The position numbers were made by a program, and so were the translations under genes. The notes under the pieces were generated by a model that searched no databases, was not told the DNA's origin, and worked only from the letters and a program-made list of their open reading frames with translations. Below, piece by piece: positions 21,001 to 27,029 of a DNA stretch of 64,000 bases (its first letter is position 1; every line of letters starts with the position of its first letter). The stretch is taken from positions 91,824,001 through 91,888,000 of the forward strand of contig NC_086097.1 of NCBI RefSeq assembly GCF_963921235.1, written 5' to 3'. The stretch comes from Mobula hypostoma (Eukaryota).

Positions 21001-21893
21001 CTTCTGCATATGTTTTAATTCCCTTTTGAAAAATACTGAATTTCCTATCATTGTTTCAGACAGTGCAGTCCAAATTATAAATCTGTGTACATTATTTTTT
21101 CCCCATTCACCTTAGATAGAATACATTTGCCCTTGTTTACAGAGCCTCCTTTCTGTGAAAACATCATTCCCTTTAACAAAAAAACACTAAAAAAAATTCA
21201 TTGAGATATAGTGAAGAGGGAGGATAGATACAAGCTTCAAGTCTTAGCTGGGTTAGAGACTTGTTGATTTCTTAACTACATTATTATAACATAAAGTACA
21301 CAAGCACTCAGCAAACAGCATTTTAATGGCCAAGGGATCAAACAAGCTATTTCGCTCAGCAATATCCAACACCACCATCAACTGAGTCACTTGACTGAAT
21401 GCACAAATGATATCTTGTCAAATTTAATCCAAGCTTAAATCAGCAATAAACTGTAGAAACATATTTCTGAGAATGTTGGAATAAACTAAATACACTTTCA
21501 AATTCAGAATCAGTAAACATGCAGGTAATCTGCAGAGTAACTATTGCCCTAAATTCAGTTTATCTGCAAGTTAACCAGAGGTCTTAATAACACTACATAT
21601 GATGAGTAAAGCAAAGAGCATTTTTTGTTGAATACTTCTTGACAAGAAAGCAGAACTAACAAGAATTCAAATCAATGGACCCATTTTACATAAAATATCA
21701 GAAAGAACAGAACACAGATCAACATTCCAGTAAGTTCAATTTACTATTATTCCACGGTTACAAAACAAATTACCCAAATTCTGCACATTTGAGTTGTGTT
21801 TACTGATTCATTGCTCCTGTCTCAGACTCACATCTGCTTTTGATTGCTCTCTTCCCCAAACTCTGAAATAATAACAAGTATACATTTAACCAC

Positions 21894-22777
21894 GCAAACA
21901 CGAGAAAATCTGTAGATGCTAGAAATTCAAGCAACACACACAAAATGCTGGTACTCCCTCCCGGCACTTACCCTTGTAAGCGGAACAAGTGCTACACATG
22001 CCCTTACACTTCCTCCCTCATCACCATTCAGGGCCCCAGACAGTCCTTCCAGGTGAGGCGACACTTCACCTGTGAGTCGGCTGGGGTGATATACTGCGTC
22101 CGCTGCTCCTGATGTGGCCTTCTATATATTAGTGAGACCCGACGCAGACTGGGAGACCGTTTCGCTGAACACCTACGCTCTGTCCGCCAGAGAAAGCAGG
22201 ATCTCCCAGTGGCCACCCATTTTAATTCTATGTCCCATTCCCATTCTGATATGTCAAACCATGGCCTCCTCTACCGTCAAGATAAAGCCATACTCAGGTT
22301 GGAGGAACAACACCTTATAGCCTCTGGGTAGCCTCCAACCTGATGGCATGAACATTGATTTCTCTAACTTTTGTAAATGCCCCTCCTCCCCTTCTTACCC
22401 CATCCCTTATTTATTTTATTCCCTGCCCCTATTTTTTTCTTCTCTCTCTGTCTCTCTCACACAATCACTCCTTGCCTGTTCTCCATCTTTCTCTGGGCTC
22501 CCCTCCCCCTTTCTTTTTCCCTAGGCCTCCTGTCTCATAATCCTCCCCCTTCTCCAACTCTGTATCCCTTTTGCCAATCAATTTTCCAGCTCTTAGCTTC
22601 TTCCCTCCCCCCTCCTCCTATCATTTTGGATCTCCCCCTCCCACTTTCAAATCTCTTACTATCTCTTTTCTCAGTTAGTCCTGACGAAGGGTGTCGGCCC
22701 AAAACATCGACTGCACTTCTTCTTATAGATGCTGCCTGGTCTGCTGCGTTCCACTAGCGTTTTGTGTGTGTTGCTTT
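21894..22777 (+). mobile_element. Penelope-like element: inverted 5' terminus, GIY-YIG endonuclease remnant and hammerhead terminus, with 11-bp TSD
   Basis: Encodes PCKRNKCYTCPY...FTCESAGVIYCVRCS*CGLLYISETRRRLGDRFAEH...LEEQHLI. CATTTAACCAC at 21883-21893 and 22778-22788. The hammerhead at ~22677-22712 has a G12>A change. Confidence 0.92.
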
Positions 22778-25340: not shown

Positions 25341-25625
25341 GGCATAATGCTCTTAAGTTTTGAAATGATCTGTACAGTTGGCATGCAAACCTAATTTTCC
25401 ACTGTACATGACAAGAATAAACCAGTTCCAAAGCTTGGTAGAAATCACAAGTGTTTGTCTCTTTCAAAGGCTTAACAGGCATTTTTTATATATTATTGAA
25501 TCAATCAAAATTGCCATAGTATTTGATCTCATCTTCAAATTTGTCATCAAGTTATGACACTATTACTGCAAACCATACAGGCTTCAAGTAAACACACAGT
25601 TCAATTTTAACCAAATAATCCTATT

Positions 25626-26332
25626 CAGGTCCTGAAGACCATCGCTGAAGCCGTCAGCGCAGGAGTTGAGTGGGCGAAGTGGTCCTGACCCTCCAAGCAG
25701 ACCATTGCCTTTGTCTGAGCTGGGGAACAGCCAAAACAGCCAAAAGAACATCTGCAGGCATTCTGACCTCTGCAAGGGACTAACAGCTGTTGGTAGACCT
25801 CGAATGGCAGCTGAAGTTCCCCAACCATATCATAGCCACCACCCTACAACCAGACATTGTCCTTGTGTCTGAGTCTACAAAGCAAGTGGTGCTGCTGGAG
25901 CTGACAGTCCCATGGGAAGATCGCTTGGAAGAGGCCTTTGAAAGGAAGCTCTCCAAGTACGCAGGACTGGTCAGCAACTGTCAGCAGGCTGGATGGAGAG
26001 CGAGGTGTCTCCCAGTGGAGGTTGGTTGTAGGGGATTCGTAGCCCGTTCCTTAGCTAGAGCCTTCAGCAATTTGGGCATCGAGGGAGAGAAGAAGAGGAG
26101 AGCCATCCGCAGTACCACCGATGCGGCAGAGAGGGCTCAAGATGGCTATGGCTCAAAAGAGGGGAGCTATGGAGTCATACGTAGTTAGTCATCTGGACAC
26201 AAGCTGAGGTCTGAACAGCCCCGGCTGGGTCACCTGGAGGAGGGTGTATGATGTTGAAAGACCTGAAACACCCGATGATTCTAGGAACATCACTGAAGAT
26301 GTGTCCAGAAGCATCAGTAGATGTATGTACAC
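25626..26332 (+). mobile_element. 5'-truncated HERO-like non-LTR retrotransposon (restriction-like endonuclease domain and 3' UTR)
   Basis: QVLKTIAEAV...TTLQPDIVLVSESTKQVVLLELTVPWEDRLEEAFERKLSKYAGL...PVEVGCRGF carries the PD..(E)..K..KY RLE signature. One in-frame TAA at ~25781; a frameshift at ~26136 precedes RWLWLKRGELWSHT*. Confidence 0.88.
26242..26305 (+). ncRNA. Candidate rearranged (non-circularly permuted) hammerhead ribozyme
   Basis: Stem III: GGGUGU 26242-47 with ACACCC 26268-73. GUA cleavage triplet at 26246-48. Stem I: UGAUGUU 26249-55 with AACAUCA 26286-92. CUGAAGA at 26293-99; GAAA at 26265-68. Stem II: GUGUC 26301-05 with GACCU 26260-64. Confidence 0.7.
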
Positions 26333-27029
26333 AGCATTTATAACAAAGCCTTTTATACAGATTAATGCAATTAGAAATCCAAAAGAAAATAAATTTGCTG
26401 AAAATTACATTTGTTTAACAAAATAACAAAATCAGGCACATTGTTTAAAATACTGAGATACAGATTACATTGTTATTAAAAAAAGCAATTTCAAATCCAT
26501 CTTTCTCCTCAAACAAGAGATCAGAAATTGGTACTTGGCTTCTTTAATGTACTTGCATCAGTTTTCAAACCTTGGTCAGTTATGATTTCTCAAGTCTGAG
26601 TCAAGTAAAAATAAAAGCTGTTGCTCTATATTGGGGAAGGTGATAAAGAGACAAGTGAGCTAACCTTTCATGTCATGTTTGATAAGCATGTTGATGTCCA
26701 ATCTGTACAAAGACCATGATCCTTAGTATGTGTTTATATAAATAAAGCTGTACACAATGCTTTTAAGACTGTCAAGATATCATGTTGCAGAATATAAGAC
26801 GGTGCTTCAAATTCCCTAGACAGCAGAATGCAAGGGGGAGAAAATCCTCAGATGCATCAACAACAGCATTCTCCTTTGCTTAAAAAAACATGAGCAATGG
26901 TGGCAAGGTGGCATTAATTACTCAGCCTTAGAGATCCCAAGGGACCAGACAGTGCAGATTAGCGTGACAGCTTCCCTTTCCTTAACAACGTTAATGAACC
27001 AATTACCCATAAACTTCCACATTGTTCAC

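Follow-up and report, generated by a model that had tools for sequence, protein, structure and literature searches.

A predicted hammerhead ribozyme in permuted type-SGC order, with a K-turn-like brace, in the 3' untranslated region of an R2-like LINE

Background

Hepatitis delta virus (HDV)-like ribozymes reportedly lie at the 5' end of R2 and of other long interspersed nuclear elements (LINEs), in work attributed to Eickbush and Eickbush in 2010 and to Ruminski et al. in 2011, and Cervera and de la Pena are said to have described, in 2014, minimal type I hammerheads in the pseudo-long terminal repeats (pseudo-LTRs) of Penelope-like elements. The Penelope hammerheads are unpermuted, and their stem III is so short that they probably work as dimers; the nuclease of their host is of the GIY-YIG type, not a restriction-like endonuclease (RLE). 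The present work concerns a hammerhead-like motif at positions 26242-26305 of a 64-kb stretch of DNA from Mobula hypostoma (contig NC_086097.1), here called the window. The motif lies in the 3' untranslated region (UTR) of a 5'-truncated copy of an R2-like, RLE-type LINE, and on balance we favour the reading that this UTR carries a non-circularly permuted hammerhead of type SGC, predicted from its sequence to be self-cleaving. All coordinates refer to the + strand of the window, residue numbers follow hammerhead numbering, and "window family" denotes the element family of the copy at 25625..26335.

The window motif resembles the hammerheads of Penelope-like elements in its place near the 3' end of a retroelement, and in both systems full-length copies stand behind a partial upstream copy; theirs is unpermuted in a GIY-YIG host, whereas here the order is permuted and the host is of the RLE type. 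With the HDV-like ribozymes it shares an RLE-type LINE as host, a (here predicted) cut at its own 5' edge and a possible release from a longer transcript. Those ribozymes have a different fold and lie in the 5' UTR, whereas the window motif lies in the 3' UTR.

The closest match in strand order comes from the study of Eckert, Friedrich, Weinberg and Weinberg (Nucleic Acids Research 2023; PMC10085705), in which the hammerhead was divided into blocks S, C and G, and natural RNAs in the order S-G-C, a non-circular permutation named type SGC, were shown by assay. The linker from stem I to stem II is typically 3 nucleotides (nt) in this type, the authors' RNAMotif pattern hhead-SGC contains CUGAUGAUG and CGAAA, and the validated SGC-1 and SGC-2 read ...GUC AUGUU..GGACC GAAA..AACAU CUGAUGA U GGUCC. 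A fourth helix enclosing the C block was required for the activity of SGC-3, and the way in which the far end of stem III is joined to stem I was left open for some RNAs (PMC10085705). In the available text of that paper, type-SGC sequences all come from IMG/M metatranscriptomes, and rearranged hammerheads from IMG/M metatranscriptomes plus one bacterium. Literature searches for type-SGC or other hammerheads in RLE or HERO LINEs returned only the 2023 paper and an R2 engineering paper, and the search listings contained no account of a motif of this kind in a LINE or in any eukaryotic genome. A first-pass annotation of the window had rightly spoken of rearranged hammerheads as a rare class; as far as the available text of the 2023 paper goes, the window family is not among the published ones.

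Results and discussion

A hammerhead core in S-G-C order

The first-pass annotation had described a hammerhead with scrambled strand order, every core element standing beside its correct helix. The letters were re-read and found in place at 26242-26305, in the block order S-G-C. The claim of a scrambled order is strengthened by the identity of this order with that of published type SGC, by a core fixed in three element families and by covariation in stems I and III, as described below. The parts of the motif are as follows.

26242..26247, + strand: stem III 5' strand (16.6-16.1), GGGTGT, pairing 6/6 with 26268-26273
26248..26249, + strand: predicted cleavage site between A17 (26248) and U1.1 (26249), placed by analogy with hammerhead numbering
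26249..26255, + strand: stem I 5' strand (1.1-1.7), TGATGTT, pairing 7/7 with 26286-26292
26256..26259, + strand: linker from stem I to stem II, 4 nt, GAAA
26260..26264, + strand: stem II 3' strand (11.5-11.1), GACCT, 4/5 pairs with 26301-26305
26265..26268, + strand: G12 A13 A14 A15.1 (GAAA)
26268..26273, + strand: stem III 3' strand (15.1-15.6), ACACCC
26286..26292, + strand: stem I 3' strand (2.7-2.1), AACATCA
26293..26300, + strand: C3 U4 G5 A6 N7 G8 A9 (CTGAAGA, 26293-26299) plus an extra T (26300)
26301..26305, + strand: stem II 5' strand (10.1-10.5), GTGTC

Stem II of the window copy is paired at four of five positions, one of them a G-U, and holds one U-C mismatch; the linkers between the parts of the motif measure 4 nt and 12 nt. 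In the predicted ribozyme the S block (stem III strand, GUA, stem I strand) would come first, the G block (stem II strand, GAAA, stem III strand) second and the C block (stem I strand, CUGAAGA with the extra base, stem II strand) last, and because of this order the three helices would cross as pseudoknots. Standard hammerhead models had been expected to miss such a motif, and no hammerhead match was returned by Rfam either for the whole window at gathering scores or around the site at expectation values (E) up to 10. This is expected of a permuted form, since its strands stand out of order.

Set against type SGC (HRIMA-1 and its variant), the window motif is alike in its block order, its full core, the short (3-4 nt) linker from stem I to stem II, the cut (here predicted) near its 5' edge, and the G10.1-C11.1 pair and extra base after A9, on both of which it also agrees with the published SGC pattern (PMC10085705). 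The stem I letters AUGUU/AACAU are common to both, lying here two pairs farther from the core. The extra U after A9, which had been singled out in the first-pass annotation, is indeed present (T26300) and is no oddity; it is a regular feature of type SGC, as SGC-1, SGC-2 and the RNAMotif pattern carry it. The two also differ. The published sequences are from metatranscriptomes, probably of circular RNA replicons, whereas the window motif belongs to an autonomous LINE with thousands of DNA copies in a vertebrate-type genome. A fixed U-C mismatch in stem II is found in the window motif. The helix that closes the C block in type SGC is missing here, where an outer helix and a kink-turn (K-turn)-like loop extend stem III and close the S and G blocks. 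Because a fourth helix is not conserved across the families, the architecture is best described as a variant, and no copy, of type SGC. By its letters, the motif reads as a permuted hammerhead of type-SGC order, its K-turn-like brace and its LINE host being features beyond the class as the available text describes it.

A fourth helix between 26274-26281 and 26308-26315 (GATGATTC/GAAGCATC) was tried as a candidate. It pairs in the window family only, not in the two further families B and C introduced below, and it was dropped, its 3' half belonging to a covarying 3' hairpin.

A small alternative hairpin can also be drawn at 26287-26303, between ACATC of the stem I 3' strand and GATGT (G8 to U10.2). 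It is possible in the window family and in family B, appears in the minimum free energy (MFE) fold of the window copy and would represent an alternative, inactive state of the RNA; with C as its extra base, family C cannot form it. The nested MFE of the window copy is not unusual (z -1.43), and this fold shows the outer helix and the 3' hairpin.

Chance expectation

When the window was scanned on both strands with a descriptor of the observed stringency, in all six block orders and with blocks up to 150 nt apart, this site was the sole match. Five sites matched once one mismatch per stem was permitted, namely this one and four others, and loose descriptor matches are therefore common. Random core sites were also simulated from a first-order model of the window; of 200,000 such sites one met the published SGC descriptor, which corresponds to about 0.2-0.7 expected per 3.48 Gb genome, and none reached the observed helix strength. 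A single match of this quality is uncommon yet possible by chance and is suggestive only; it is therefore the comparative data from diverged families that lift the motif above chance.

A functionless look-alike, carried along in a young repeat, would fit the likeness of the window-family copies, which are about 92-96% alike so that conservation within this family is uninformative, as well as the four other places matched by relaxed descriptors. It would not lead one to expect a module kept in three families, whose proteins are down to about 54% identical, with compensatory changes in its helices. Of the explanations weighed in this work, such a look-alike is the least credible.

Fixed and variable letters in three families

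Family B, from the same genome, was first pointed to by loose ends of contigs and gave 363 exact pattern hits, against 0 in the control. Family C, also from this genome, was found from the 3' UTR of L106 and has at least 832 candidates; 18 copies of family B and 20 of family C were read. L106 is a metagenome contig with 54% amino acid (aa) identity to the window family, nearest to family C, that carries the 3' UTR module; its open reading frame (ORF) is broken, and it is taken for a decayed copy on this account. A second metagenome contig, L105, was found by a protein-based scan and has 86% aa identity, an intact 1112-aa ORF and the 3' UTR module, while a third locus, L107, has no 3' module. 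The alignment comprises 34 rows: three of the window family (including L105), 12 of B, 18 of C, and L106. Family B loci left out were L067 (deletion), L071 (a window-family copy), and L072, L076, L080 and L082 (indels); the C loci L118 (C3 to T) and L124 (changed linker) were removed by the filter.

C3, U4, G5, A6, G8, A9, G12, A13, A14, A15.1-U16.1 and G10.1 are fixed in the majorities of all three families. C11.1 departs solely by CpG decay to U; position 11.1 is C in most window-family copies and T in the window copy through this decay. By rows, the core CTGA.GA is present in 33/34, as a member of the hammerhead class should have it. GAAA is present in 25/34, with AAAA in 8 (G12 lying in a CpG) and TCAA in one, and the A15.1-U16.1 pair (columns 23-44) is U-A in 33/34. 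Variation falls elsewhere. N7 is A in the window family and in C; family B mostly has T, and a few of its rows have C or A. At H17 the window family has A and the other two families have C, giving the cleavage triplets GUA and GUC, respectively; G occurs there in 0 of 34 rows, which agrees with the N-U-H rule. The extra base after A9 is T in the window family and B and C in family C, and the linker from stem I to stem II reads GAAA in the window family, TAAA in family C and TGAA in L106.

Across columns 18-82, the family majorities disagree in 14 of the 65 columns, which include N7, H17 and the extra base but not one of the 12 fixed core columns. By our own arithmetic, the chance that 12 core columns stay unvaried is about 0.05, and that of all three free places varying about 0.008. 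Judged from these rows, the pattern of fixed and free letters is as a hammerhead predicts, and a generic protein-binding fold does not predict it.

Position 16.4 also varies, being T (GGTTGT) in 20 of 31 window-family copies and in nearly all pieces adjoining full-length copies. The change from G to T at this position (window 26244) marks a young subfamily of the window family and, separately, a subfamily C2 of family C (L112-L117, L120, L123-L126); parallel change or an exchange of 3' modules may lie behind it. G is the majority letter at 16.4 in contigs of three other organisms (89%, 100% and 75% of depth) and stood at 15% in the first run.

Helices and covariation

Beyond stems I, II and III, two further helices enter the structure that was scored on the alignment.

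26233..26238, + strand: outer helix (P-x) 5' strand, CCTGGA, pairing with 26280-26285
26280..26285, + strand: outer helix (P-x) 3' strand, TCTAGG (TCCAGG in most copies)
26312..26323, + strand: small 3' hairpin, CATC-AGTA-GATG

For the whole structure 84.6% of the cells are paired, compared with 35-44% when the partners are slid, and the covariation score was reached by none of 500 shuffles, a result to be read with the caveat that the sequences are related. Stem I is paired in 98.8% of its cells. Its pair 1.6-2.6 is U-A in 13 rows of the window family and B (with two more decayed) and A-U in 19/19 C rows, while pair 1.4-2.4 is flipped in L106; in these flips each strand of a pseudoknot helix has undergone a transversion. 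Stem III is paired in 84.8% of its cells, and in the intact L105 a C16.3-G15.3 pair replaces U-A, a compensatory change that is accompanied by G16.4-U15.4. Both sites are CpGs, which makes the changes in L105 weaker evidence. Stems I and III are supported as helices by two compensatory flips and one, respectively.

The outer helix is paired in 82.8% of its cells and has changes on both sides in three of its six pairs, including two compensatory events (U-A/C-G at columns 11-59 and G-C/A-U at columns 14-56). One compensatory event, U-A to C-G between families, occurs in the 3' hairpin at columns 94-101. The only change on both sides of stem II is a single-row cell (UA, columns 40-78), both letters of which lie in CpGs. 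The first-pass annotation had looked to covariation in all three stems together with an invariant core as the sign of a hammerhead; the core proved fixed and stems I and III covary, and stem II does not. RNAalifold, left to find its own consensus, returned a weak and unrelated structure of -4.7 kcal/mol. As far as aligned sequences can tell, stems I and III together with the outer helix and the 3' hairpin form a genuine fold that is under selection.

A K-turn-like loop between stem III and the outer helix

A K-turn consists of a helix, a 3-nt bulge, tandem sheared G-A/A-G pairs and a second helix, examples being those of box C/D RNAs and Kt-7. An asymmetric loop of this kind, GGA opposite GAUGAU, stands between stem III and the outer helix, with a 3-nt bulge followed by G-A that faces G-A on the other strand, beside a C-G pair.

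26239..26241, + strand: non-bulged strand of the K-turn-like loop (G, G2n, A1n)
26274..26279, + strand: bulged strand, L1-L3 GAT, G1b A2b, 3b T

The purines of the loop are well kept: A2b is found in 34/34 rows, G1b in 30/34, A1n in 31/34, and G2n is G in 24/34, the rest being A, mostly at CpG. L2 is A in 32/34 and L3 is T in 31/34, while L1 and the 3b/3n pair vary between families. At the level of sequence, the loop looks like a K-turn in all parts of the consensus, including the Watson-Crick pair -1b/-1n and the two flanking helices. It shares the pattern of Kt-7 and of the K-turns in box C/D RNAs, all four key purines being kept, and differs from them in being placed within stem III of a fold that resembles a hammerhead; among the literature matches listed, none described a K-turn in a natural hammerhead. 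Stem III would continue through this loop into the outer helix, and the kink would return the end of the outer helix to the distal end of stem I, the two being joined by 0-2 nt. A K-turn would account for an extension of stem III that joins distal stem I, and for faint matches to SNORD78.

These matches (14.9 bits, E 9.5, at 26244-26300; 17.6 bits, E 2, at L031:3845-3901) bring in another explanation, that of a box C/D small nucleolar RNA (snoRNA)-like element or retro-copy, with AUGAUGU as box C, CUGA as boxes D' and D, and CGAUGA as box C'. The scores are far below the gathering score of 38, and the likeness can be explained by the GA motifs of the hammerhead core and of the K-turn-like loop. 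Moreover, there is no terminal stem beside boxes C and D, 8 nt lie between C and D' where a guide needs at least 10 nt, the D' CUGA reads CCGA where its CpG is intact, and the letters taken as box C form a covarying helix with the strand that precedes CUGA. The snoRNA reading was rejected for its sub-threshold scores, missing terminal stem and short guide, and is very improbable.

The host element

25625..26335, + strand: 5'-truncated copy, about 711 nt, of a non-LTR element of about 3.63 kb, ending ...GTACACAGC without poly(A)
25784..26188, + strand: open frame of 134 aa, C-terminal end of the element's single ORF, with a PD...ELTVPWE...KY stretch
26324..26335, + strand: 3' tail TATGTACACAGC, the end point of all copies

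Thirty other copies align to 26335/26336 and have many different 5' start points, and the genome holds 3,239 occurrences (2,997 + 104 + 69 + 69) of the 15-mer beginning at U1.1. With the ORF stop at 26186-26188 and the element end at 26335, the motif falls in a 147-nt 3' UTR, about 30 nt before the end of the element. A PD...E.K-like C-terminal stretch was read by eye as part of a restriction-like endonuclease, and Pfam gave no match on the 134-aa piece alone (25784..26188). In longer copies and in the intact L105, RVT_1 was detected (E 1.4e-14, 54.7 bits, cut-off 29.6), as was zf-RVT just below its cut-off (E 3.1e-05, 25.0 bits, cut-off 27.5), and the best solved relatives of the element protein are R2 retrotransposon proteins (E 3e-27). 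On the strength of RVT_1, zf-RVT, the R2 relatives and the nuclease stretch read by eye, the element is an R2-superfamily, RLE-type LINE; its single ORF, variable 5' truncation and lack of an LTR are those of an RLE-type non-LTR retrotransposon. The earlier placement of the motif in the 3' UTR of an RLE retrotransposon is borne out by the ORF stop, the 5'-truncated copies, the two domains and the R2 relatives.

The same 3' UTR holds a further hairpin, GGGG(T)C-TGATCA-G(C)CCCC, with a palindromic loop, at window 26204-26223. It is kept in all three families and is mutated in the window copy (GAGG, TGAACA). Elsewhere in the window, two adjoining open frames at 21867-22331 (+ strand) resemble, on visual reading, the end of a Penelope-like element that carries its GIY-YIG nuclease (..LLYISETRRRLGDRFAEHLRSV..); they had no match in Pfam.

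Junctions and 5' ends of copies

Among the best 30 matches to the 5' end of the unit (L037-L066), 27 full-length copies stand directly behind the partial 3' end of another copy. The head-to-tail junction is exact, with ...ACACAGC followed by TTACACCC (for example L057:1206-1500, unit start 1501), and the upstream pieces are 5'-truncated and 25-825 nt long, 21 of them long enough to hold the whole motif. The other three have no upstream piece and start cleanly at TTACACCC. Such junctions look like end-to-end template jumping, or like the copying of tandem or circular templates. An HDV-like ribozyme at the unit 5' end, which might explain the exact junction, was not matched in Rfam at E up to 10. 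The partial upstream copy places a complete motif about 88 nt before most full-length units, so that a cut there would free the element RNA.

The junctions also bear on a more elaborate scheme, a retrozyme-like LINE. Cuts by the K-turn-braced hammerhead at two successive motifs of a tandem or read-through transcript would give a unit-length RNA with 5'-OH and cyclic-phosphate ends, a host ligase would close it into a circle, and the reverse transcriptase would run for more than one round from ...ACACAGC. Running more than once round the circle would produce head-to-tail junctions with a variable upstream partial copy, as in the 27/30 above. We give this circle scheme only an outside chance.

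The 5' ends of copies were surveyed for those with a non-G 20 nt upstream of U1.1 (242 hits, 238 of them listed), which were classed by eye, and 20 were fetched. The 15 site-start candidates included five unrelated chance matches (L088, L092, L093, L098, L099) and one deletion variant (L095). The remaining nine are short copies that begin 0-2 nt from the predicted cut: L085, L087, L089 and L096 of the window family, and L086, L090, L091, L094 and L097 of family B, L097 being doubtful, hence eight or nine. About two copies begin between -3 and -8 (about -6), and among 100 of 229 matches to a second pattern the starts from +1 to +8 were one at +2 and one at +4. The corresponding count in family C, 16 hits against 4 in the control, was uninformative. 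This local excess of 5' ends, resting on small counts made by eye, may faintly reflect cutting in vivo, or else stalling of the reverse transcriptase. Assembled contigs of three sequencing runs span the site at a junction locus and include related families and variants; as assemblies they show no RNA ends and speak neither for nor against cutting.

Another group of about 11 copies begins at -9 to -12 (window 26237-26240; L100-L104), at the K-turn-like loop just before the stem III strand. Recurrent internal deletions that end exactly at TGATG (U1.1) were also seen, as in copy L046, and some of them remove the whole S block. They often fall between short repeats (CCTGGA/TGATG, GGGGTC/TGATG, TCGCC/TGATG).

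Catalysis or recognition

A number of observations weigh against a working ribozyme. The whole 147-nt 3' UTR is conserved, beyond the core, as expected of a recognition element for the reverse transcriptase, and because of this conservation alone is no proof of catalysis. Stem II is paired in 72.4% of its cells, with the U10.2-C11.2 mismatch in 34/34 rows and no compensatory change at the family level. The most abundant young subfamilies of the window family and of family C carry GGTTGT, and stem III has a U-C mismatch at 16.4/15.4 in them. In our re-implementation, the published descriptor taken literally passes 0/34 rows, and a relaxed one (any N7, any extra base, one stem II mismatch) passes 2/34, or 5/34 with YGAAA; the fourth helix that SGC-3 needs is not conserved across the families. 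L106 carries G8U, G12A and G10.1A, a point weakened by its broken ORF. The rows, moreover, were not chosen blind: the pattern used to retrieve family B already fixes the C block, for which reason the 363 genomic hits of this family are more telling than its rows, and the dropped L118 has C3 changed to T. Finally, every retrotransposed copy keeps the motif uncut upstream of its 3' end, and the lengths of the upstream fragments have no peak at the predicted cut, one of 27 being near 88 nt (about 89).

Much of this would be natural if the 3' UTR module were a non-catalytic fold, recognized by the element's reverse transcriptase, and perhaps by a host K-turn-binding protein, at the start of target-primed reverse transcription. 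It would consist of a K-turn hairpin, a pseudoknot from its loop to downstream letters and the 3' hairpin, and its hammerhead-like letters would be contact points, a coincidence or the relic of a dead ribozyme, with no useful rate of cleavage. The helices that covary most, the outer helix and the 3' hairpin, both lie outside the hammerhead core, and the weakened stem III belongs to the most successful subfamilies. The R2 protein, from the group of best solved relatives, is reported to bind a pseudoknotted 3' UTR (PMC12222951). The two systems are alike in having pseudoknotted 3' UTRs within the R2 superfamily, and no hammerhead core is described in the available part of that paper. A recognition fold gives no reason, however, why 12 junction letters should be those of the hammerhead core with the variable places at exactly N7, H17 and the extra base, nor why its likeness to a validated permuted ribozyme should extend even to the extra base after A9, when such a match is expected by chance about 0.2-0.7 times per genome or less. 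A purely non-catalytic recognition fold is the main rival of the ribozyme reading and, in our judgement, the less likely of the two.

Possible mechanism

If the module is a permuted hammerhead, Mg-dependent self-cleavage would be expected between A26248 and U26249, leaving a 2',3'-cyclic phosphate on the upstream product and a 5'-OH on an 88-nt 3' fragment. The ribozyme in an upstream partial copy may free the element RNA from read-through or tandem transcripts, a task that HDV-like ribozymes perform for R2 and that hammerheads probably perform for Penelope-like elements, while the motif in the element's own 3' UTR would stay uncut in the RNAs that are reverse transcribed. Since this last motif must remain uncut, cleavage is probably slow or held off by a bound protein. 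The imperfect stem II, the weak stem III of young subfamilies and the need for an uncut 3' end would allow slow or regulated cleavage at best.

Conclusions

If the reading of the 3' UTR module as a permuted hammerhead is true, such hammerheads would not be confined to virus-like circular RNAs, and one member of the class would be present in thousands of LINE copies in a vertebrate-type genome. By the available text of the 2023 paper, the only RNA folds in which non-circular permutation has been demonstrated to date are hammerheads from metatranscriptomes, whose hosts are unknown (PMC10085705). The module would also offer a natural case for how the far end of stem III is joined to stem I, a task that the K-turn appears to perform here. 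Similar cases may be widespread, because standard hammerhead models and the published SGC pattern both miss this motif. For the retroelements, it would be a third ribozyme solution to the trimming of transcripts, after the HDV-like ribozymes and the Penelope hammerheads.

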